DNA of 64,000 nt. It comes from an uncultured Gammaproteobacteria bacterium (GTDB lineage: Bacteria > Patescibacteriota > Microgenomatia > Levybacterales > UBA12049). Positions within the stretch are counted from its first letter, which is position 1, and each line of letters begins with the position of its first letter. A program made the position numbers and the translations under genes. The stretch is from NCBI GenBank assembly GCA_964503265.1, contig CAZCYO010000001.1, forward strand, positions 290,064 to 354,063, in the 5' to 3' direction. Below are positions 28,663 through 63,124 of the stretch, piece after piece. The notes beneath the pieces are model-generated. The model had not been told where the DNA came from, ran no database searches, and worked only from the letters and a program-made list of their open reading frames with translations.

Positions 28663-29223
28663 ATGAATACTGAATTTGCCAGTCGTGCAGGGGAGAAATT
28701 AGCATTTGCGTTAGAACAATTTGGGATAGAGCTTACTGGGAAAATTTGTGCAGACTTTGGCTGTAGTACCGGTGGGTTTACTGATGTCATGCTCCATAAT
28801 AGTGCGCAGAAAGTGTATGCAGTCGATACAGCCTATGGAGAACTTGCCTGGAAACTCCGTCAGGATCCACGTGTGGTCGTTAAAGAGAAGTCCAATGCGA
28901 TGCATATTGCACTCCCTGAGAAAGTAGATTTTCTGACAGTCGACACGAGCTGGACGAAGCAGTCATTCGTCCTTCCAAATGCGATCGCAAATACGAAGCC
29001 AGATGCACAAATAATTTCCCTGATCAAACCTCACTATGAAGCTGATAAACGCTTACTCCATAAAGGAAAACTCCTTGAAGAAGACGCTTTCCAAGTTACA
29101 GAAAATCTCATTCTCCAGATCGAAGAAATCCTCCCACTTAAATCCCTAGGTGTAATCAAATCCCCAATCACCGGCAAAAAAGGCGATAATGCCGAATACC
29201 TAGTGTTATGGAAGAAAACTTGA
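28663..29223 (+). CDS. tlyA: TlyA-like rRNA 2'-O-methyltransferase (FtsJ fold, no S4 domain)
   Basis: SRAGEKLAFALEQFGIELTGKICADFGCSTGGFTDVML...KVYAVDTAYGELAWKLRQDPRVVV matches the TlyA consensus SRGglKL...DiGaSTGGFTD. Confidence 0.7.
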   Translation: MNTEFASRAGEKLAFALEQFGIELTGKICADFGCSTGGFTDVMLHNSAQKVYAVDTAYGELAWKLRQDPRVVVKEKSNAMHIALPEKVDFLTVDTSWTKQSFVLPNAIANTKPDAQIISLIKPHYEADKRLLHKGKLLEEDAFQVTENLILQIEEILPLKSLGVIKSPITGKKGDNAEYLVLWKKT

Positions 29224-29233
29224 AATATTAATT

Positions 29234-29263
29234 GTCATCCTGGAGCGAAGCGATAGGATCTCA
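29234..29263 (+). repeat. Hairpin repeat copy (TGTCATCCTGGAGCGAAGCGATAGGATCTCA), left inverted end of GIY-YIG unit
   Basis: Member of the TGTCATYC...GRATCTCA family, ending 3 nt before the GIY-YIG ATG. Confidence 0.6.
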
Positions 29264-29265
29264 TA

Positions 29266-29502
29266 ATGAAACAGTACTACGTCTATATTGTTACCAATAC
29301 ATATAATACAACTTTTTATATTGGAATTACACATGACTTAATCAGAAGAATCTATGAACATAAGAGTAAATTACTAGATGGTTTCACAAAAAAATATAAT
29401 TTGACGAAATTAGTTTATTATGAAATCTACTCAGATCCTTTTTCCGCAATAACAAGAGAGAAATTTCTTAAAAATTTATTAAGAGTTAAGAAAATAGAAT
29501 GA
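29266..29502 (+). CDS. GIY-YIG nuclease family protein (UPF0213/COG2827-like, 78 aa)
   Basis: YYVYIVTN...YIGITHDLIRRIYEHK matches the GIY-YIG motifs. Confidence 0.85.
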   Translation: MKQYYVYIVTNTYNTTFYIGITHDLIRRIYEHKSKLLDGFTKKYNLTKLVYYEIYSDPFSAITREKFLKNLLRVKKIE

Positions 29503-29542
29503 ATAAAAGAAACGAATCCACTATTTAAAGAAATTGAGGTAT

Positions 29543-29581
29543 GAGATTCTATCAGCCACTACGAGGCTTCCAGAATGACAA
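29543..29581 (-). repeat. Hairpin repeat copy in inverted orientation (right end of GIY-YIG unit)
   Basis: Reverse complement TGTCATTCTGGAAGCCTCGTAGTGGCTGATAGAATCTCA. Confidence 0.6.
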
Positions 29582-29617
29582 TATATACTTATAATAAATC
29601 TACTATAAATTGTCATC

Positions 29618-29646
29618 TTGACACCTCCTTCTTTTCCTTTTATAGT
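29618..29646 (+). promoter_or_regulatory. Sigma70-like promoter candidate (TTGACA-17-TATAGT) for serine-biosynthesis leader
   Basis: TTGACA at 29618-29623, a 17-nt spacer, and TATAGT at 29641-29646. Confidence 0.45.
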
Positions 29647-29788
29647 GTTTGTACAGACGTTATATTCTGGACATTCCCCCAGAAGAGTCGCATACGGAAG
29701 CGTTAAGTTAGAAACGTATAAGTATAGCCGGAAGTCTCCGTTACAAGACAAGTAAAGTTCTTTCCAAGGCTAATTGGAGAGATAAAGT

Positions 29789-29838
29789 AAGGTGGCACCA
29801 CGAGTTAGCTCGTCCTTATATAAGGAGGAGCTTTTTTT
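29789..29838 (+). promoter_or_regulatory. T-box-like motif + intrinsic terminator in leader of serA::serB
   Basis: AAGGTGGCACCACG matches 12 of 14 positions of the T-box consensus AGGGTGGNACCGCG. It is followed by hairpin GCTCGTCC-TTATATAA-GGAGGAGC and TTTTTTT immediately before GTG 29839. The SD AAGGAGG lies in the 3' half of the terminator stem. Confidence 0.35.
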
Positions 29839-31656
29839 GTGAAAAAACCAACAATATTACTCACTAACCCAATTCACCCTGATGCAATTGCTCTATTAAA
29901 AGAGCATGCGGCGGTTACCGAAAAGTTCGGCATTTCTCACGATGATCTCGCTAAACATATTTCTCGTTTCGGTGCAGTCATTACTCGCTCAGATAACGCT
30001 ATTACACCCGCGATCATTGATGCAGCCACACATCTAAAAGTTATAGGCAGAGCAGCGATCGGTGTCGATACGATTGATATTCCTTATGCCACCAAAAAGA
30101 AAATAGCAGTCGTAAATGCACCTACAGGAAACTGTAACGCAGCTGCTGAACATACCATAGGTCTTATCTTCGCACTCGCTCGACACATACCAAATGCTCA
30201 CACAGATTTGACGAATGGTGTTTGGGGGAAACATAGATATATCGGCATGCAACTTGAAGGAAAAACACTTGGCATCATAGGACTTGGAAGAGTAGGCAAA
30301 CATGTCATGCGCATAGCAAAGAGCATAGGGCTTAGGGTCATTTATTACGATCCATTTGTTCGTTATGCTGACGCCAAACAAGTAGATCTTCACGAACTAC
30401 TCAAAATATCGGATTTCGTTACACTTCACACTCCACATACGAAACTGACAGATCAGCTCATAAACGAGCATACGTTAACACTCATGAAAAAATCAGCGTA
30501 TCTTATTAACTGTGCACGAGGAAAAGTCGTTAATGAAAGTGCTCTGATTACTGCACTTAAGAACAAACAAATTGCTGGAGCAGCACTAGATGTATATGAA
30601 CATGAACCGCTTATAGATAGTGAGTTGTCGAAACTTACGAATGTGGTTCTTACTCCTCATATTGGTGGCTCGACTGTGGAAGCACAACGCGCGACAGGGA
30701 TGGAAGTCGCGCAGGGAGTACTTAGTATTCTTCATGACGAAAAGCCAGAAAACTTACTAAATCCGGAGATCTATGCCCCACAAATAACATACTTCGACAA
30801 TGTCTCAACCATTATCTTTGACTGTGACAGTACACTTGTGACAATTGAAGGAATTGATGAATTAGCCCGGAATAAAGGTGTTGAAGCACAAATTATTCCA
30901 CTCACTGAGAAAGCGATGAATGGGGAGATAGACCCAGAAGATGTATTTAAAAAACGTCTTGAAATTATTAAGCCTACCAAAAAAGAACTTCTCGAATTGG
31001 GAAATCGCTATATTACCCATCTTCTACCTGGAACAAAAGAAATTATCAGAATGTTAAAAAAACAAGGAATTAACATATATATCGTGTCGGGAGGGTATGA
31101 TTTGCCCCTGCATATTCTGGCAGATTACTTGCATATACCGCGAAGAAATGTTCATGCAAATAAACTATTATTTACGAAAGATGGTGAATATAAAGCGATT
31201 GATAAATCAATTCCACTTTGGAAAAAAGGTGGGAAAAAGGAAGTTATCAATAATATATGTCATTCTGGAAAGCGAAGACTTTCCCAGAATCAAACTCTGG
31301 ACAAGAGAGGTCGAAGGCTCCCCCTGGGAGATGACAAAGAGGAAAATGGCAAAACAATCCTTGTGGGGGATGGTGTTACTGATGCACAGGCGAAAAGTGC
31401 TGTCGATATTTTTATCGGATTTGGTGGAGTTAAAAAACGTGAAGCGGTTAAAAAAGAAGCACATATTTACCTAGAATCACCCACACTTGCACCTCTTTTA
31501 CATATTGCAAATGAAAGTTTATGCAGGCATAATCGTATGAATATTGTTGAGCGAGAGTATTTTATTTCAGGACTAGATTACCTTCTCAATCCCGAAATGA
31601 CGACATTTGCAAGTCATCATCACAAAGAAGAAATTGTCCAACAATTATTACAATAA
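29839..31656 (+). CDS. Fusion: D-3-phosphoglycerate dehydrogenase (SerA-like) + HAD phosphoserine phosphatase (SerB-like)
   Basis: N-terminal half has GLGRVGKHVMRIAKSIGLRVIYYDP (NAD Rossmann) and a 2-hydroxyacid dehydrogenase layout. C-terminal half has IIFDCDSTLV (HAD motif I) and ILVGDGVTDAQAK (motif IV). GTG start with SD. Confidence 0.75.
   Translation: MKKPTILLTNPIHPDAIALLKEHAAVTEKFGISHDDLAKHISRFGAVITRSDNAITPAIIDAATHLKVIGRAAIGVDTIDIPYATKKKIAVVNAPTGNCNAAAEHTIGLIFALARHIPNAHTDLTNGVWGKHRYIGMQLEGKTLGIIGLGRVGKHVMRIAKSIGLRVIYYDPFVRYADAKQVDLHELLKISDFVTLHTPHTKLTDQLINEHTLTLMKKSAYLINCARGKVVNESALITALKNKQIAGAALDVYEHEPLIDSELSKLTNVVLTPHIGGSTVEAQRATGMEVAQGVLSILHDEKPENLLNPEIYAPQITYFDNVSTIIFDCDSTLVTIEGIDELARNKGVEAQIIPLTEKAMNGEIDPEDVFKKRLEIIKPTKKELLELGNRYITHLLPGTKEIIRMLKKQGINIYIVSGGYDLPLHILADYLHIPRRNVHANKLLFTKDGEYKAIDKSIPLWKKGGKKEVINNICHSGKRRLSQNQTLDKRGRRLPLGDDKEENGKTILVGDGVTDAQAKSAVDIFIGFGGVKKREAVKKEAHIYLESPTLAPLLHIANESLCRHNRMNIVEREYFISGLDYLLNPEMTTFASHHHKEEIVQQLLQ
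31258..31338 (+). repeat. 81-nt hairpin-repeat copy inserted in-frame in the SerB domain
   Basis: TGTCATTCTGGAAAGCGAAGACTTTCCCAGAATCA...GGGAGATGACAAA. Encodes about 27 extra residues (CHSGKRRLSQNQTLDKRGRRLPLGDDK) between HAD motifs III and IV. Confidence 0.55.
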
Positions 31657-31660
31657 TATA

Positions 31661-31740
31661 GTCATCCTGGAGCCCCGATGAACATCGGGACGATAGGATC
31701 TCACCAAGTGGGATTCTATCACTTCGTTCCAGAATGACAA
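31661..31740 (+). repeat. ORF-less inverted pair of hairpin repeats (MITE-like)
   Basis: GTCATCCTGGAGCCCCGATGAACATCGGGACGATAGGATCTCA at 31661-31703 and inverted TGTCATTCTGGAACGAAGTGATAGAATCC at 31711-31740, separated by 7 bp. Confidence 0.55.
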
Positions 31741-31749
31741 TAACTATAT

Positions 31750-32820
31750 ATGAACATTAACTTACGCATACCAGGACCAACCCCCATTCCACCACAAGTT
31801 CGTGAGGCACTCTCAGGTCAAATGATAAATCACCGTGGACCAGAATTTGCTGAAATTCTCTCTCGTGTTACCGCAAATCTTCAGACAGTATTTCAGACGA
31901 CAAATGACGTGCTCATCTATCCAAGTGCTGGAACAGGCATGATGGAAGCGACAGTTATCAATACCTGTAGTGCTGGAGATACAGTTATTGTGATTTCAAT
32001 CGGCACATTTGGAGAGCGATATGCAAATATTGCTAAGATTTTTGGACTGAATGTTATTACCGTTATTCATGATTCTGGACACGGTGCACATTTAGATGAA
32101 ATTAAAAAAGCACTTGATGCGAACCCAAATACGAAAGCCGTGTTTGTAACACATAACGAAACATCGACAGGTGTCACGAATGATCTTGAAAAAATTGCTA
32201 AGCTTATTAAAACATATGATGTACTCCTAATCGTGGATGCAGAATCATCACTTGGCTCAATTCCCGTTAAGATAGATGACTGGGGCATAGACGTAGCTCT
32301 CACAGCTTCACAAAAAGGCTTTATGTGTCCTCCCGGACTTTCTATGGTCAGTATCAGTAAAAAAGGGTGGGAAGCAGTTGAAAAATCGACACTTCCGAAA
32401 TTTTATTTTAACTTTCTCGATGCAAAACGATCTCTCCTTAAAGGACAAACTCCGTATACTCCCGCAGTCTCACTCTTTTTTGGAATTGACGTAGCGCTCA
32501 CTATGATGCTTGAGGAGGGACTTGAAAATATCTTCACTCGTCACAAAAGAATAGGAGAATTTACAAGAAACGAAATTAAGAAACTAGGATTATCACTTTT
32601 CCCATATGAAGAATTTGCATCAAATACTGTAACCGCGGTAAAAGTCCCAGAAGGAGTCGATGGAAAGAAGTTTTTAGACACTGCTCGAGTTGAACACGGA
32701 TTAGTACTTGGTGGTGGACAGGGAGATCTAAATGGTAAAATATTTCGCATTGGACATATGGGGTGGGTAAACGAAAAAGAAATTAGTGATGCGATAGCAA
32801 CTATTAAAATCATTTTGTAG
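31750..32820 (+). CDS. Class V aminotransferase (AGXT/SerC-like; probable phosphoserine aminotransferase)
   Basis: 356 aa. IPGPTPIPPQV...HRGPEF at the N-terminus and the PLP-lysine region LTASQKGFMCPPGL. The serC role is inferred from context. Confidence 0.65.
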   Translation: MNINLRIPGPTPIPPQVREALSGQMINHRGPEFAEILSRVTANLQTVFQTTNDVLIYPSAGTGMMEATVINTCSAGDTVIVISIGTFGERYANIAKIFGLNVITVIHDSGHGAHLDEIKKALDANPNTKAVFVTHNETSTGVTNDLEKIAKLIKTYDVLLIVDAESSLGSIPVKIDDWGIDVALTASQKGFMCPPGLSMVSISKKGWEAVEKSTLPKFYFNFLDAKRSLLKGQTPYTPAVSLFFGIDVALTMMLEEGLENIFTRHKRIGEFTRNEIKKLGLSLFPYEEFASNTVTAVKVPEGVDGKKFLDTARVEHGLVLGGGQGDLNGKIFRIGHMGWVNEKEISDAIATIKIIL

Positions 32821-38701: not shown

Positions 38702-40004
38702 GTCTCGCGTTTCGTCGTATTTTACCAGTCCTCACGAATTCGAACCGAAAACACAGCAACTTGTCACCCACATTCAGAAAATTAAAATAACGATCGTCGA
38801 ATCTGAACTTGAATCATTACTACTTGAAGCGTTTTATATTAAAAAATTTACTCCTAAATATAATATTCGTCTGGTAGATAACAAAACATATCCGATGATT
38901 AAAATTACTGCAAAAGATACATATCCTGCTGTTTTTATGACTCGAAAAATAACTGATAGTAAATCAATATACTTTGGGCCATATCCTAGCTCTAGTAGTG
39001 TAAAACTCGTTCTAAAAACGATTCGTCGAGCGTTTCCCTATATGTCGACGACCAATCATCCAAAGAGAACGTGTTTATATAACCATATCGGGCTTTGTCC
39101 ATGCCTTCCAGTCAATAATTCACCAGAGGTAAAACGTGAATATAAAAAAAATATTAAACAAATTATTCGAATATTGGAAGGCGAATCGCCTAAAATTATA
39201 AAAGAATTAGAACGAGAACGAGATAAGATGAGTAAAGAAGAGAAATATGAAGAAGCAGCACTTCTCCAAAAACGGATTGCAGCTATGAATTTTATCACCA
39301 GTCCATTCCATCGACCAGGTGAATATGACATCAATCCAAACCTACGTGAAGATATTAGAGTAAACGAACTGAATGATTTAAAGAATGTATTAAATAGCGC
39401 CGGTTACCGAATTGAAAAATTAGACAAAATAGAGTGTTATGACATCTCACATATCCAAGGTACTAACACGACGGCTTCTCTCGTGGTATTTGTTAAAGGA
39501 GAGAAAGAATCTTCACTCTATCGAAAATTTAAAATACAATTAGAAAAAACTCCTGATGATTTCGCTTCAATGCAAGAAGTGCTCAGGCGTCGTCTAAAAC
39601 ACACAGAATGGGAATATCCTGACTTAGTGATAGTCGATGGAGGAAAAGGTCAGGTATCATCAGCACTGGAACTGTTTAATGAACTAAATATCACAATTCC
39701 ACTAATCGGACTCGCTAAACGTGAAGAAACCATCGTAGTGCCACTTACACATCCACAAATATCTAACAATCTGTCATTCCCGCGAAGACGGGAATCCAGT
39801 CATATAAATGAAGATCCAATAAATTCCCGTCTCCTTTCGCAGGTTCGTGACCTTCGCGGAAATGATAAAGAAAACTTCCAAGAAATTGTTATCCCTCATT
39901 CATCGAAGGCGCTTCACCTTATGATGAGAATTCGGGATGAAGCGCATCGGTTTGCGGTAACGTATCACCGCAAGCTTCGCTCAAAAGCTTTTATCGAGAA
40001 ATAG
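38577..40004 (+). CDS. uvrC: Excinuclease ABC subunit C
   Basis: N-terminal GIY-YIG PGVYMFFDEHGKILYVGKAKDLKSRVSSYF, a central UvrC/RNaseH-like region, and the C-terminal IRDEAHRFAVTYHRKLR. Carries a 32-codon repeat insertion at 39772-39867. Confidence 0.9.
   Translation: MEELFLVFQRSSYLSLPTKPGVYMFFDEHGKILYVGKAKDLKSRVSSYFTSPHEFEPKTQQLVTHIQKIKITIVESELESLLLEAFYIKKFTPKYNIRLVDNKTYPMIKITAKDTYPAVFMTRKITDSKSIYFGPYPSSSSVKLVLKTIRRAFPYMSTTNHPKRTCLYNHIGLCPCLPVNNSPEVKREYKKNIKQIIRILEGESPKIIKELERERDKMSKEEKYEEAALLQKRIAAMNFITSPFHRPGEYDINPNLREDIRVNELNDLKNVLNSAGYRIEKLDKIECYDISHIQGTNTTASLVVFVKGEKESSLYRKFKIQLEKTPDDFASMQEVLRRRLKHTEWEYPDLVIVDGGKGQVSSALELFNELNITIPLIGLAKREETIVVPLTHPQISNNLSFPRRRESSHINEDPINSRLLSQVRDLRGNDKENFQEIVIPHSSKALHLMMRIRDEAHRFAVTYHRKLRSKAFIEK
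39772..39867 (+). repeat. 96-nt nested-palindrome repeat inserted in-frame in uvrC
   Basis: Terminal inverted repeats TGTCATTCCCGCGAAG and CTTCGCGGAAATGATA (14 of 16 positions complementary). Internal hairpins ATTCCCG/CGGGAAT. The length is a multiple of 3 and it adds about 32 aa relative to the E. coli UvrC C-terminal region. Confidence 0.6.
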
Positions 40005-44927: not shown

Positions 44928-44999
44928 TGTCATTCCCGACTTGACGATTTATCCTAAATTTATTCTCTAATCAAATTGTACTGTTGAGTATCGGGAATC
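44928..44999 (+). repeat. Hairpin repeat copy with long loop (TGTCATTCCCGA...TCGGGAATC)
   Basis: Begins 1 nt after the rnhB stop. Arms ATTCCCGA and TCGGGAAT. Confidence 0.4.
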
Positions 45000-45085
45000 T
45001 ACACGATAATCTCCTTATTTGTACCCAGAACTAAATTATCCATAAGTTTTCTGTAATCTTCTTATAAGGTTCCTATCAAGCTCAC

Positions 45086-51563: not shown

Positions 51564-51773
51564 TATGTAACTCTAAAAAGATACTAACTGTAAACGTGCA
51601 AAAAATTACATAGTAAGGAAAAATACTCTTGCAAACAAGAGCCATACCTTTATATGTGGGTATGATTATACTAAAAATAAAGACAAAATACAATACTATA
51701 AGATGTTTAATGCCATTTATGATAACGATGGCCAAATTTTAATTTGGGAATTTACAAATAAAACAGAACTTTG

Positions 51774-51845
51774 TGAGCCAGGGGGGACTCGAACCTCCAA
51801 CCGATTCCTTAAGAGGGAATTGCTCTACCATTGAGCTACTGGCCC
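51774..51845 (-). tRNA. tRNA-Lys (anticodon CUU)
   Basis: Reverse complement GGGCCAGTAGCTCAATGGTAGAGCAATTCCCTCTTAAGGAATCGGTTGGAGGTTCGAGTCCCCCCTGGCTCA. Anticodon loop CTCTTAA. One A.C mismatch in the T stem. Confidence 0.8.
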
Positions 51846-51906
51846 TGTCCGCCATTGTCTGCGACTTCAGGCGCTGACAGGCGGGCCTGAGTAATAATGG
51901 CATTAA

Positions 51907-52143
51907 CTATATTCTAGATTTCAAAAAATTTCTTCCAAATCCAGTTTTGAGATATTTTTCTCTTTTAATCGCTTTATTCTCATCCAAGCAGGCTTCGTAA
52001 TAAATTAATTCTAAAGGTGTCCTACTTTTTGTGGAAATAACTAAGCCTTTATTATGCTCATTCAATCTCTTTTTGAGATCTCCAGTAAAGCCAATATAGA
52101 TGTTATTATCTTTTTTACTTCGTAACACATATGTATAAAACAT
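51907..52143 (-). CDS. GIY-YIG nuclease family protein (UPF0213-like, 78 aa), second copy
   Basis: FYTYVLRS...IYIGFTGDLKKRLNEHN. Lies 61 nt from tRNA-Lys(CUU). Confidence 0.85.
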   Translation of the reverse strand: MFYTYVLRSKKDNNIYIGFTGDLKKRLNEHNKGLVISTKSRTPLELIYYEACLDENKAIKREKYLKTGFGRNFLKSRI

Positions 52144-54606: not shown

Positions 54607-54700
54607 TGTCATTCTGGGAAACAGCGATATCAGTTTTCTTGATTATTTCGTTGCACTGCAAACAAGCTGTCATCCCCGACCTGATCGGGGATCCAGAATT
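54607..54700 (+). repeat. Nested hairpin-repeat copies between ABC ATPase and permease genes
   Basis: Outer TGTCATTCTGGG...CCAGAATTACA. Inner TGTCATCCCCGACCTGATCGGGGATCCAG at 54668-54696. Confidence 0.5.
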
Positions 54701-58363: not shown

Positions 58364-58456
58364 TGTCATTCTCAGCTGGACTGAGAATCTCTTTGATATT
58401 TTCTTATAAATAAAATAGGTATTTCTTTTAGATTCTCATTTTCATAAGAATGACAA
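58364..58456 (+). repeat. ORF-less inverted pair of hairpin repeats (MITE-like)
   Basis: TGTCATTCTCAGCTGGACTGAGAATCTC at 58364-58391 and inverted CTTTTGTCATTCTTATGAAAATGAGAATC at 58431-58456, flanking 39 bp. Confidence 0.55.
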
Positions 58457-60744: not shown

Positions 60745-60975
60745 TTAGTTTTTTTTGTAGGCTGAGTAGGGGTTACACGAAAGAACACGGATGAATGAAA
60801 GTCGCACCGCTTTAAAAAAAGGGTATGTATTGAAACAATGAATTGCATATTCAGAACAAGAGACTTTATAAATACACTGCGCCCCTAAAGCCGCAAAAAA
60901 AGGAGATAAAATCACCTGATACCCCCGAATAAAAATAATTGCAATCTTCTTCATAAAATCACGTGTCATTCTCAT
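60745..60975 (-). CDS. yidD: Membrane protein insertion efficiency factor YidD
   Basis: IRGYQVILSPFF...CIYKVSCSEYAIHCF...RVLSCNP matches the YidD signature. The first four codons are supplied by a hairpin repeat, so the real start may be the MKK at codon 8. Confidence 0.8.
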   Translation of the reverse strand: MRMTRDFMKKIAIIFIRGYQVILSPFFAALGAQCIYKVSCSEYAIHCFNTYPFFKAVRLSFIRVLSCNPYSAYKKN

Positions 60976-61043
60976 GAAAATGAGAATCTACTAGATACTT
61001 CTCTAGTCATCCTGGAGCGAACGAAGTGAGTGATAGGATCTCA
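60964..61043 (+). repeat. Two tandem hairpin-repeat copies
   Basis: TGTCATTCTCATGAAAATGAGAATCTAC at 60964-60989 and GTCATCCTGGAGCGAACGAAGTGAGTGATAGGATCTCAC at 61006-61043. Confidence 0.55.
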
Positions 61044-61078
61044 CATATAATTCTATATACTTCTTCACTCACCGCTTA

Positions 61079-63027: not shown

Positions 63028-63124
63028 TGTCATTCCCTTGAAAAAGGGAATCTATTAAATATACCTTTTTAACTAGATATAAAGGGAAATTTAACAGATT
63101 CTCAGTCAAGCTGAGAATGACAGC
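63028..63124 (+). repeat. ORF-less inverted pair of hairpin repeats (MITE-like)
   Basis: TGTCATTCCCTTGAAAAAGGGAATCT at 63028-63053 and inverted TGTCATTCTCAGCTTGACTGAGAATC at 63098-63124, flanking 44 bp. Confidence 0.55.

Follow-up and report, generated by a model that had tools for sequence, protein, structure and literature searches.

An Ssn-type GIY-YIG gene between inverted hairpin repeats, and ORF-less hairpin pairs near it, read as lineage-specific insertions in a Levybacterales genome

Is a small GIY-YIG nuclease gene that lies between two inverted hairpin repeats an autonomous mobile element, and are the ORF-less pairs of similar repeats in its neighbourhood the non-autonomous derivatives of it? 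The question is raised by a 348-bp unit (29233-29580), composed of a TGTCAT-hairpin, a GIY-YIG ORF and an inverted hairpin-ATGACA, in a stretch of 64,000 nucleotides that was analysed as a whole and is called the window here. The bracketing of the ORF by inverted repeats, on which the first-pass annotation had built its proposal, is real, and the distances given there hold: the left repeat ends 3 nt before the ATG, and the right one begins 41 nt after the stop. The GIY-YIG gene is the sole ORF of the unit, which therefore includes no DDE or other established transposase, and no HUH protein of the RAYT/TnpA_REP type is encoded inside or beside it. The coordinates of the features are collected in Table 1.

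Table 1. Ssn-type gene, hairpin repeats and related features of the window
Feature	Position	Strand	Remark
Left SRM hairpin repeat, class A (TGTCAT-CCTGGA...GATAGG-ATCTCATA)	29233-29265	+	abuts ATG
ssn gene, read as nonsense allele, 78 codons plus TGA	29266-29502	+	assigned to the Ssn family of single-domain GIY-YIG nucleases
Former C-terminal coding remainder, 13 codons IKETNPLFKEIEV, plus ancestral stop	29503-29544	+	
Right SRM hairpin repeat, class A, T variant (TGTCAT-TCTGGA...GATAGA-ATCTCATA)	29541-29580	-	inverted orientation
In-frame TGTCAT...ATGACA doublet, 81 nt, 27 codons CHSGKRRLSQNQTLDKRGRRLPLGDDK	31258-31338	+	phosphoserine-phosphatase domain, 605-aa ORF
ORF-less class-A doublet, serA-PSP/serC spacer	31660-31739	.	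present also in strain-level contig L173
In-frame doublet, 96 nt, inside uvrC (..LSFPRRRESS..)	39772-39867	+	right arm degenerate (ATGATA)
119-nt segment after RNase HII gene, read as lineage-specific insertion	44928-45046	+	opens with SRM-like hairpin
Second GIY-YIG ORF	51907-52143	-	clade other than ssn
Single intergenic SRM TGTCATCCCCGACCTGATCGGGGATCCAG	54668-54696	+	fits published SRM pattern
ORF-less class-B doublet, ~93-nt element	58364-58455	.	
Tandem same-orientation hairpins, class B 60964-60991 then class A 61005-61044	60964-61044	+	
ORF-less class-B doublet, inverted copy of 58364 element	63028-63122	.	

The repeat sequence GTCATTCCCGCG was the literature key that led to the work of Chenal et al. 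(Nat Commun 2025; PMC11893778), who described the GIY-YIG family Ssn (CDD cd10448), single-domain nucleases of about 94 aa, and the hairpin repeats named SRM. The SsnA proteins of Neisseria and Wolbachia bind the GTCAT hairpin repeat solely in its single-stranded DNA form and place a nick a few nt 5' of GTCAT, dsDNA and RNA not being acted on; an IS-like "repeat-gene-repeat" layout and a parallel to REP/RAYT were already raised there as a hypothesis (PMC11893778). The phrase "new kind of mobile system", used for this unit before, is outdated by that publication.

By its sequence, the window protein is very probably a member of the Ssn family. Membership was judged by BLASTP against Neisseria SsnA (E<1e-10, at least 75% coverage), and the 92-aa protein obtained by reading through the stop codon matched N. 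gonorrhoeae SsnA with 47% identity across 88 of its 94 residues and a pairwise E=1e-29. The protein taken for this direct comparison was the 94-aa orthologue of N. gonorrhoeae (L164 547-831), not N. meningitidis CAX49033.1 itself; the orthologue has Y6/Y17/E64 and NTS flanks, in agreement with the published description (PMC11893778). The 78-aa window allele is 49% identical to the same protein over 76 aa. Residues Y7, Y18 and E65, invariant in 29 homologues and all kept in the truncated allele, align with Y6, Y17 and E64 of Nm SsnA, which are the residues mutated in PMC11893778. GTCAT-type hairpins, a further family criterion, were found on both sides of the gene within 500 bp, as the two class-A repeats of Table 1.

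The ORF matches Pfam PF01541 (E=3e-14, residues 3-75), and the AF2 model of the restored protein (pLDDT 95.3) presents a GIY-YIG fold with no extra domain, whose best PDB fold matches are UPF0213 BH0048, Slx1 and the UvrC N-terminal domain. The protein had been called UPF0213-type; it is related to UPF0213 (YhbQ) but probably does not belong there in the strict sense. Sequence profiles found 1zg2 with E=7e-8 and 1ywl with E=2.5e-5, with a fold-match identity of 26%, and the UPF0213 match is much weaker than that to SsnA (about 25% identity vs 47%); UPF0213 is also a CDD subfamily other than that of Ssn (PMC11893778). The second GIY-YIG ORF of the window is closer in look to the more distant UPF0213-type proteins, and an exact-sequence look-up returned no record for it. 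NCBIfam gave no specific family for the window protein, with sub-threshold matches only, to group I intron endonuclease and UvrC models; the matches to homing-endonuclease models (PHROG, NCBIfam) reached 20-21 bits. In enzymes of the I-TevI type the nuclease domain is tethered to a C-terminal DNA-binding domain, and their genes are intron-encoded or free-standing in phage genomes. A homing endonuclease of this type was considered and rejected for a single-domain protein of 92 aa without intron context.

The 78-aa gene of the first-pass annotation is on sequence comparison a truncated nonsense allele (TTA -> TGA). Its homologues measure 92-98 aa, and read-through of the TGA at 29500-29502 continues as ...KKIE[L]IKETNPLFKEIEV and restores the 92-aa length. 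At the same locus a sister strain (P0121/L082) carries an intact 92-aa allele, with TTA (Leu) where the window has TGA. Recoding of TGA (code 25) was rejected for the in-frame stop, the neighbouring genes being long table 11 ORFs and the codon of the sister strain being TTA. The ancestral stop TGA (29542-29544) lies within the right repeat, and therefore both repeats adjoin the ancestral ORF. In the AF2 model the truncation cuts helix 73-83 and removes an ordered, conserved tail; because these last 14 residues are missing, the window copy of ssn is likely to be inactive or in decay.

The left repeat of the unit reads TGTCATCCTGGAGCGAAGCGATAGGATCTCATA and the right one, on the minus strand, TGTCATTCTGGAAGCCTCGTAGTGGCTGATAGAATCTCATA. 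Both are class A, a yCTGGA...GATAGrATC subclass with an interrupted stem, while class B is a second subclass of the form TGTCATTCyC-stem-GAATC. The motif GTCATYCTGGA, with at most one mismatch, occurs 9 times in the window vs 2.07 expected, a count reached in 0 of 100 shuffles, and TGTCATYC occurs 15 times vs 5.3 expected. The published SRM search pattern, HGTCWYN(0-2)YYVSBRHN(0-5)WNVSBRGN(0-2)RNCYNB (PMC11893778), has only two matches in the window, at 39772-39799 and 54668-54696 (shuffle mean 0.11). The interrupted stem (CTGGA..GATAG) of the class-A repeats that flank ssn keeps them from matching it; the pattern serves as a search heuristic and does not define the family.

These repeats might be taken for ordinary regulatory or terminator hairpins, or for chance palindromes, with a coincidental placement around the gene. 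Most of them are indeed intergenic, and a search of the window with Rfam at gathering thresholds returned four tRNAs only and no family for the hairpins. In addition, the class-A hairpins are weak as DNA folds when compared with shuffles by nearest-neighbour energies (z 0.3 to -1.2), whereas those of class B are stable (z -2.7 to -3.7). As class-A fold energies are no better than those of shuffles, the case for hairpins rests there on the enrichment and on compensatory stem variants (ATCCT/AGGAT vs ATTCT/AGAAT). On the other side stand motif counts above every shuffle, the lack of T-tracts, the in-frame insertions of some repeats within conserved proteins and the published biochemistry of Ssn (PMC11893778), and the strongest objections come from the homologous loci.

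Among 77 homologous loci from many phyla, a hairpin was found upstream of the gene in 73%, downstream in 82% and on both sides in 61%, the repeats of the latter facing outward. Hairpin density is 9.6/kb beside the gene vs 0.31/kb further off (about 30-fold), and in 19 of the 63 loci that have a downstream hairpin the stop codon abuts or overlaps it. The whole TGTCAT...ATGACA unit recurs, with sharp borders, in an unrelated genomic context in L083: the repeats are 94% (left, 31/33) and 90% identical to those of the window and the ORF 74%, while the flanks are at 41-44%, and the homology begins at GTCAT and ends at ATGAC. By this alignment, the module stands as a discrete unit in genomic contexts that are unrelated to each other. 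The enrichment over the 77 loci and the L083 comparison effectively refute the reading of the repeats as ordinary or chance hairpins, which we consider extremely improbable. A protein motif that follows REKxIK co-varies with the class of the repeats among the homologues, NL[LV]R being paired with CTGGA..GATAG, (A/G)GSR with TTGCGAG, and xWxR with CTGAG and NTS-like repeats.

The window also presents ORF-less pairs, as had been noted before; the claim that they share the termini of the gene-bearing unit holds at the level of subclass only for the doublet at 31660-31739. This doublet has TGTCAT...ATGACA terminal inverted repeats in common with the ssn unit, and its left end is likewise the C variant and its right end the T variant. 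The pairs at 58364 and 63028 are of class B; they are homologous to each other over their full length, spacer included, and no cognate gene for class-B repeats was found within the window. No ORF remnants were found in the ORF-less doublets. Two further doublets are read in frame, and the structures show their extra residues as insertions: the one at 31258-31338 is an insertion relative to human PSP (1nnl), and the uvrC doublet, whose left hairpin fits the published SRM pattern, lies within an insertion of ~46 aa relative to T. maritima UvrC (2nrr). The hairpin that opens the 44928-45046 segment has a long loop, TGTCATTCCCGA...TCGGGAATC.

Two syntenic relatives, L166 and L172 (73-79% nucleotide identity), were reached through the UvrA 90% cluster; a metagenome scan with the SerC-like neighbour returned relatives of at most 56% identity with another gene order, and no usable empty sites. 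Both L166 and L172 are without the ssn unit, their FtsJ-serA gap being 233 and 201 nt vs 615 nt in the window, and both are without the in-frame doublets of uvrC and of the PSP domain. In the serA/serC spacer the window has a class-A doublet and L172 one of class B, and the spacer is empty (2 nt) in L166, which also lacks the 44928 element and has 18 unrelated nt in its place. These alignments mark both the module and the ORF-less doublets as insertions specific to the lineage, and two of the doublets are in frame, in uvrC and in the serB-like domain. Target-site duplications, suggested before as a check, were looked for at four filled sites against the empty sites of L166 and L172, and no consistent length or sequence was found; the AT-rich flanks presented only irregular candidate direct repeats, AATTGTCAT at 29230-38 and 29608-16 and ACAATAAyTATA at serA/serC. 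A 79-nt deletion in L001 was not taken as an excision footprint, the L001 contig having 1.67x coverage.

The first-pass annotation had named three outcomes that would speak against a relationship between an autonomous element and its ORF-less derivatives, namely homologues never associated with the repeats, flanking repeats explained as independent insertions, and the lack of polymorphic insertion sites. The relationship survived all three: repeats accompany the gene in most homologous loci, the unit recurs as a block in L083, and L166 and L172 have the site without the unit.

The order of arrival could be reversed in a homing-like scheme, in which the doublets are primary, ssn is a selfish ORF that invaded the centre of one of them, and the ORF-less pairs are uninvaded targets instead of deletion derivatives. 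The ORF does reach exactly from the inner end of one hairpin to that of the other, with the ATG directly after ..CTCATA and the stop in TGAGAT.., and both the doublets free of ORF remnants and the weak PHROG and NCBIfam matches to homing endonucleases agree with this scheme. However, a single domain of 92 aa is without the DNA-binding extension typical of homing GIY-YIG enzymes, and the characterised homologues cut only ssDNA, and outside the repeat instead of between the repeats (PMC11893778). Moreover, the empty FtsJ/serA site of the relatives has no doublet, and therefore repeats and gene arrived together. The homing-like scheme is highly improbable.

We consider it very likely that the 29233-29580 unit is an SRM-ssn-SRM module and that the elements described here are insertional in nature. 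As for the agent of this insertion, an intact protein of the lineage would, by analogy with the characterised homologues, bind the class-A repeats as ssDNA and nick 5' of GTCAT. The nicks would then fall on the outer edges of both the module and the ORF-less doublets, and Ssn would supply sequence-specific nicking for the spread of both, as RAYT does for REP/REPIN, with insertion being completed by host replication or repair. That Ssn itself drives the movement of module and doublets is a tentative proposal, held at somewhat less than an even chance. The fuller reading, of module and ORF-less doublets as a true autonomous/non-autonomous transposon pair whose movement is initiated by a hydrolytic, ssDNA-specific GIY-YIG nickase, is possible but a little more doubtful. 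The inverted repeats offer one cleavable site per strand per element, so that single-strand excision of the IS200/IS605 type does not follow directly. DNA hydrolysis by GIY-YIG enzymes passes through no covalent intermediate, and we know of no strand-transfer or joining step for them, nor of any Ssn with a demonstrated activity in transposition, excision or strand transfer. A literature search found no later report of Ssn transposition, and nothing relevant on GIY-YIG proteins with REP, REPIN, MITE, UPF0213 or COG2827.

That lack of a known joining activity also speaks for a different reading, in which Ssn/SRM is a domesticated host system and not a transposon. At SRM sites it would restrict or trim ssDNA, such as DNA taken up in transformation or intermediates of replication and repair; the repeats would have spread by unrelated means, for example recombination, replication slippage or another enzyme. 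The sole in vivo role shown for Ssn, a roughly 5-fold modulation of natural transformation in N. meningitidis (PMC11893778), favours it; such modulation needs no mobility and counts against the reading of Ssn as the driver of movement. That no clear target-site duplication was found at the sites compared points the same way. On the other hand, a host system leaves unexplained why the gene lies exactly between two outward repeats in 61% of the loci, why the block is conserved with sharp borders in unrelated contexts, and why independent insertions, some in frame, recur in one lineage. We regard it as rather unlikely in this exclusive form; the two views could be compatible if the host system is a domesticated former element.

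By itself, this is an ordinary, decayed Ssn/SRM locus, and its value is comparative. One 23-kb syntenic block offers clean filled and empty sites for the ssn module and four hairpin elements, including two in-frame insertions and two different doublets independently placed in one spacer. It gives direct evidence of insertional behaviour for the Ssn-related repeats as well as for the gene unit, a point on which the 2025 paper had a hypothesis only (PMC11893778). In addition, the published search pattern misses a whole repeat subclass, and the four-residue segment that tracks repeat class is a candidate specificity determinant, with a possible use in ssDNA nuclease engineering. If the transposon-pair reading were true, its chemistry would be distinct from that of DDE, HUH, serine and tyrosine enzymes, and it would name the long-sought mobilising enzyme of palindromic elements like RPE, dRS3 and NTS, which insert even in frame in essential genes.

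Among known systems, the published Ssn/SRM loci are the closest. They share a single-domain GIY-YIG protein of ~92-94 aa with matching positions of the catalytic Tyr/Tyr/Glu, hairpins on both sides of the gene that have a conserved (T/C)GTCAT at the 5' side and a C following the palindrome, and repeats of the bracketing type dispersed in the genome as singlets and pairs. The window differs in that its cognate repeats, of the CTGGA...GATAG subclass with interrupted stem, are missed by the published pattern, and in that its gene is, as read here, a nonsense allele. The nearest repeats of N. gonorrhoeae ssnA face inward, whereas those of the window face outward, with GTCAT distal to the gene. Its doublets also lie in frame within uvrC and the PSP domain, while NTS are reported as rarely intragenic (2%; PMC11893778).

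UPF0213 proteins (E. coli YhbQ, B. halodurans BH0048 1zg2, E. faecalis EF2693 1ywl) and Slx1 have the same minimal GIY-YIG fold, and to our knowledge no repeat association has been reported for UPF0213. Rickettsia palindromic elements (RPE) and MITE-like repeats (Correia elements, dRS3/NIME) are likewise palindromes of ~80-130 bp that are insertion-polymorphic between relatives and may sit in frame in genes of conserved proteins, adding a peptide loop. We know of no mobilising enzyme that had been assigned to RPEs, whereas in the window the cognate nuclease gene shares the frame of the repeats. Rickettsia is listed as one of the genera rich in SRM (PMC11893778), and dRS3 forms the core of NTS. 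Correia elements differ by their TA duplications and DDE-type ancestry, neither of which is seen in the window elements. A classical IS/MITE pair, moved by a DDE transposase and marked by target-site duplications of fixed length, has in common with the window the terminal inverted repeats of autonomous and ORF-less copies.

The REP/REPIN-RAYT system presents the same layout of one small nuclease gene between inverted copies of a short hairpin repeat, which is dispersed as singlets and inverted doublets, has a short conserved motif 5' of the stem (GTAG in REP, GTCAT here) and is recognised in ssDNA by the enzyme, as known for Ssn from characterised homologues. The analogy is functional only: RAYT is an IS200/IS605-like Y1 HUH tyrosine enzyme that forms a covalent intermediate, whereas Ssn is a hydrolytic GIY-YIG nickase of unrelated fold.

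The sequence at 29233-29580 bears out the anatomy proposed in the first-pass annotation, a GIY-YIG ORF between inverted hairpin repeats, which form together a 348-bp module (the ssn unit). The 78-aa ORF is indeed present, but it is a truncated allele. Homologues of its product have 92-98 aa, and when the TGA at 29500-29502 is read through, the conserved C-terminus is recovered and the frame closes at a TGA inside the right repeat (29542-29544). A sister-strain contig (L082), with near-identical DNA at the same FtsJ/serA locus, has TTA at the stop codon position and encodes an intact 92-aa protein (P0121). Since the TGA is also found in a second independent assembly (L001, from another sample), the stop is genuine, a nonsense polymorphism, and the repeats exactly bracketed the ancestral 92-aa ORF. 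In the AlphaFold model of an 82%-identical 92-aa homologue (pLDDT 95.3), the position of the stop falls within the last helix (residues 73-83), so that an ordered, conserved C-terminal tail is lost; judging from this model, the truncation probably matters functionally. Besides the same nonsense allele, L001 presents a 79-nt deletion (1380-1400, equivalent to window 29172-29251) that runs from the FtsJ 3' end, which is lost, into the loop of the left hairpin, whose 5' half is lost too; this may be an assembly artefact (coverage only 1.67x).

GIY-YIG ORFs and hairpin repeats in the window
Feature	Position	Strand	Remarks
GIY-YIG ORF (ssn)	29266-29502	+	Pfam PF01541, E=3e-14
Left hairpin repeat	29233-29265	+	TGTCATCCTGGAGCGAAGCGATAGGATCTCATA; abuts ORF
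Right hairpin repeat, inverted	29541-29580	-	TGTCATTCTGGAAGCCTCGTAGTGGCTGATAGAATCTCATA (minus-strand reading)
Class A repeats	29233, 29580(-), 31258, 31661, 31738(-), 61006		GTCATyCTGGA...GATAGrATCyCA
Class B repeats	39772, 54668, 58364, 58455(-), 60964, 63028, 63122(-)		TGTCATTCyC-stem-loop-stem-GAATC
Second GIY-YIG ORF	51907-52143	-	78 aa, different clade

Searching the literature in full text with the repeat sequence led to Chenal et al. (Nat Commun 2025; PMC11893778), who described exactly this repeat-flanked GIY-YIG system. Its nuclease SsnA (94 aa, a single GIY-YIG domain, CDD cd10448) binds NTS (CGTCATTCCCGCGMAVGCGGGAATCYRG), the Neisseria hairpin repeat, in ssDNA only, with cleavage a few nt upstream, and is inactive on dsDNA and RNA; in N. 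meningitidis it lowers transformation by NTS-containing DNA. The generalised repeats, named SRM, occur near 71% of the homologue genes, and on both sides in 42% (PMC11893778). Over 88 residues, the restored window protein shares 47% identity (E=1e-29) with the N. gonorrhoeae SsnA orthologue, which has 94 aa, Y6, Y17 and E64 as in the paper, and NTS on its flanks; the invariant Y7, Y18 and E65 of the window protein align with the residues mutated in that study. A fold search matched UPF0213 protein BH0048, Slx1 and the UvrC N-terminal domain. To our knowledge, the structure of no Ssn has been solved. We conclude that the window system is a new, partly decayed member of the already described Ssn/SRM system, with a variant repeat class. 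The first interpretation is thus retained as to an insertional repeat-gene-repeat unit, but not as to a new kind of mobile system.

In the window, GTCATYCTGGA with up to one mismatch occurs 9 times against 2.07 expected (0 of 100 shuffles reach 9), and TGTCATYC 15 times against 5.3. The census counted about 13 good copies across the 64 kb; they fall into two subclasses and show compensatory stem changes between copies (e.g. ATCCT/AGGAT versus ATTCT/AGAAT). Nearest-neighbour DNA energies give stable folds for the class B hairpins (z -2.7 to -3.7) but not for those of class A (z 0.3 to -1.2). Of the window copies, just those at 39772 and 54668 fit the published SRM pattern (shuffle mean 0.11); the class A repeats flanking ssn do not match it in the window scan, and therefore represent a variant subclass missed by the published heuristic. 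Inverted hairpin pairs without an ORF (doublets) are also present: the class A doublet at 31660-31739 has the same left end (C variant) and right end (T variant) as the ssn unit, and the class B doublets at 58364 and 63028 correspond to each other along their whole length, spacer included, as inverted copies of one ~93-nt element.

Eighty homologue-encoding loci (56-72% identity; 77 testable) were fetched from many phyla, including Cyanobacteria, Dehalococcoidia, Patescibacteria, Desulfobacterota, Omnitrophota, Ignavibacteria, Clostridia and Gammaproteobacteria. Almost all carry TGTCAT-hairpin-ATC(TC) upstream and an inverted copy downstream, which often overlaps the stop codon (TGAGATTGC...). 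Among the 77 loci, an outward-facing hairpin is found upstream in 73%, downstream in 82% and on both sides in 61%, and hairpin density is 9.6/kb beside the gene versus 0.31/kb beyond 600 nt; in 19 of the 63 loci having a downstream hairpin, its start lies 1 nt or less from the stop codon. The CTGGA...GATAG subclass is also found beside homologues in at least five other lineages. Uncorrected for phylogeny, the four residues after REKxIK (window residues 70-73) track the repeat class in these loci: NL[LV]R goes with CTGGA..GATAG, (A/G)GSR with TTGCGAG, and xWxR with CTGAG and NTS-like repeats, Neisseria SsnA having KWNR. In the model this segment lies in the loop separating the last two helices, and it is a candidate determinant of specificity.

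The first-pass annotation had held that its reading would be refuted if the second GIY-YIG ORF and other homologues were never associated with these repeats. The window census found no class A or B-type repeats near the second GIY-YIG ORF, but 61% of the 77 homologue loci carry outward-facing hairpins on both sides. The second protein is 39% identical to the first, matches SsnA over 64 residues only (36%), and is without the EGFT..YN and C-terminal motifs; it lies outside the criterion of PMC11893778, and so its lack of repeats has no bearing on the hypothesis. After this gene, on the minus strand (51773-52143), come a 61-nt GC-rich hairpin (RNA fold -19.6 kcal/mol, z -1.9) and, immediately next to it, tRNA-Lys(ctt).

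The 82%-identical homologue (P0002) resides in an unrelated, higher-GC context (L083), where homology with the window starts exactly at GTCAT and stops exactly at ATGAC; identity is 94% in the left repeat, 74% in the ORF, 90% in the right repeat and 41-44% in the flanks. Two syntenic relatives, a 1.05-Mb JGI contig (L166) and a Logan contig (L172), both of 73-79% nt identity, were reached via the UvrA cluster and keep the order FtsJ, serA-PSP (phosphoserine phosphatase), serC, uvrA, transglutaminase, uvrC. Both lack the 348-bp unit, with FtsJ-serA gaps of 233 and 201 nt versus 615 nt in the window. This empty site has no doublet, which makes a homing-type invasion of pre-existing doublets by the ssn gene less likely. 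Absent from both relatives are also two in-frame elements, of 81 nt in the PSP domain (31258-31338) and of 96 nt in uvrC (39772-39867), whose extra 26 and ~46 residues are insertions into conserved folds by comparison with solved human PSP and T. maritima UvrC structures; a 119-nt element (44928-45046) is absent from L166, the sole relative compared there. The serA/serC spacer, 2 nt in L166, holds the class A doublet in the window and a different, class B doublet in L172. Three lines of sequence evidence, namely the discrete unit, the empty sites and the recurrent insertion, thus indicate that the ssn unit and the elements are mobile. The insertion polymorphism proposed as a check is seen against L166 and L172, but not at strain level, L082 and L173 having the same insertions as the window; no target-site duplications were established in the AT-rich flanks of filled versus empty sites. 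AATTGTCAT occurs at 29230-29238, the left end of the unit, and at 29608-29616, 28 nt to its right, and the L166 empty site has TATTGTCAT once, within a TTGTCATATTGACA palindrome at the -35 box; this may reflect microhomology with the target or coincidence. What this locus adds is evidence from filled versus empty sites, together with the in-frame insertions.

The unit lies just upstream of a consensus promoter (TTGACA 29618-23, N17, TATAGT 29641-46) of a region (29618-29838) with a probable T-box leader (29651-29820; RF00230, 51.9 bits, E=8e-11, below the gathering score of 93). The leader region is conserved in L166 and L172, and its terminator hairpin and T-run end at the GTG start of a 605-aa ORF (29839-31656), a 2-hydroxyacid (phosphoglycerate) dehydrogenase fused to a phosphoserine-phosphatase HAD domain. 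With the SerC-like aminotransferase that follows (31750-32820), it makes up what looks like a three-step serine operon under T-box control. L172 (461-2217) carries, upstream of the shared block, SMODS and S_4TM genes (CBASS-like defence) adjoining HTH and PLD-like genes, where the window and L166 carry others.

Homologues have been shown to recognise the hairpin in ssDNA and to nick 5' of GTCAT (PMC11893778). An intact enzyme of the window lineage would nick the outer borders of class A elements, and this nick could set off the copying or insertion of both the module and the ORF-less doublets, an event that host functions would finish. Such Ssn-driven movement has to face one cleavable site per strand of an inverted pair, GIY-YIG enzymes without joining activity, and restriction of transforming ssDNA as the sole demonstrated role. 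A domesticated, non-mobile role of Ssn/SRM is a serious alternative, which may coexist with mobility. Finally, the N. gonorrhoeae ssnA locus (NZ_CP119140.1, 1881729-1883141; a 2.17-Mb chromosome filed as plasmid in PLSDB) has its nearest NTS facing inward, with GTCAT proximal to the gene, whereas in the window and most other loci the repeats face outward.
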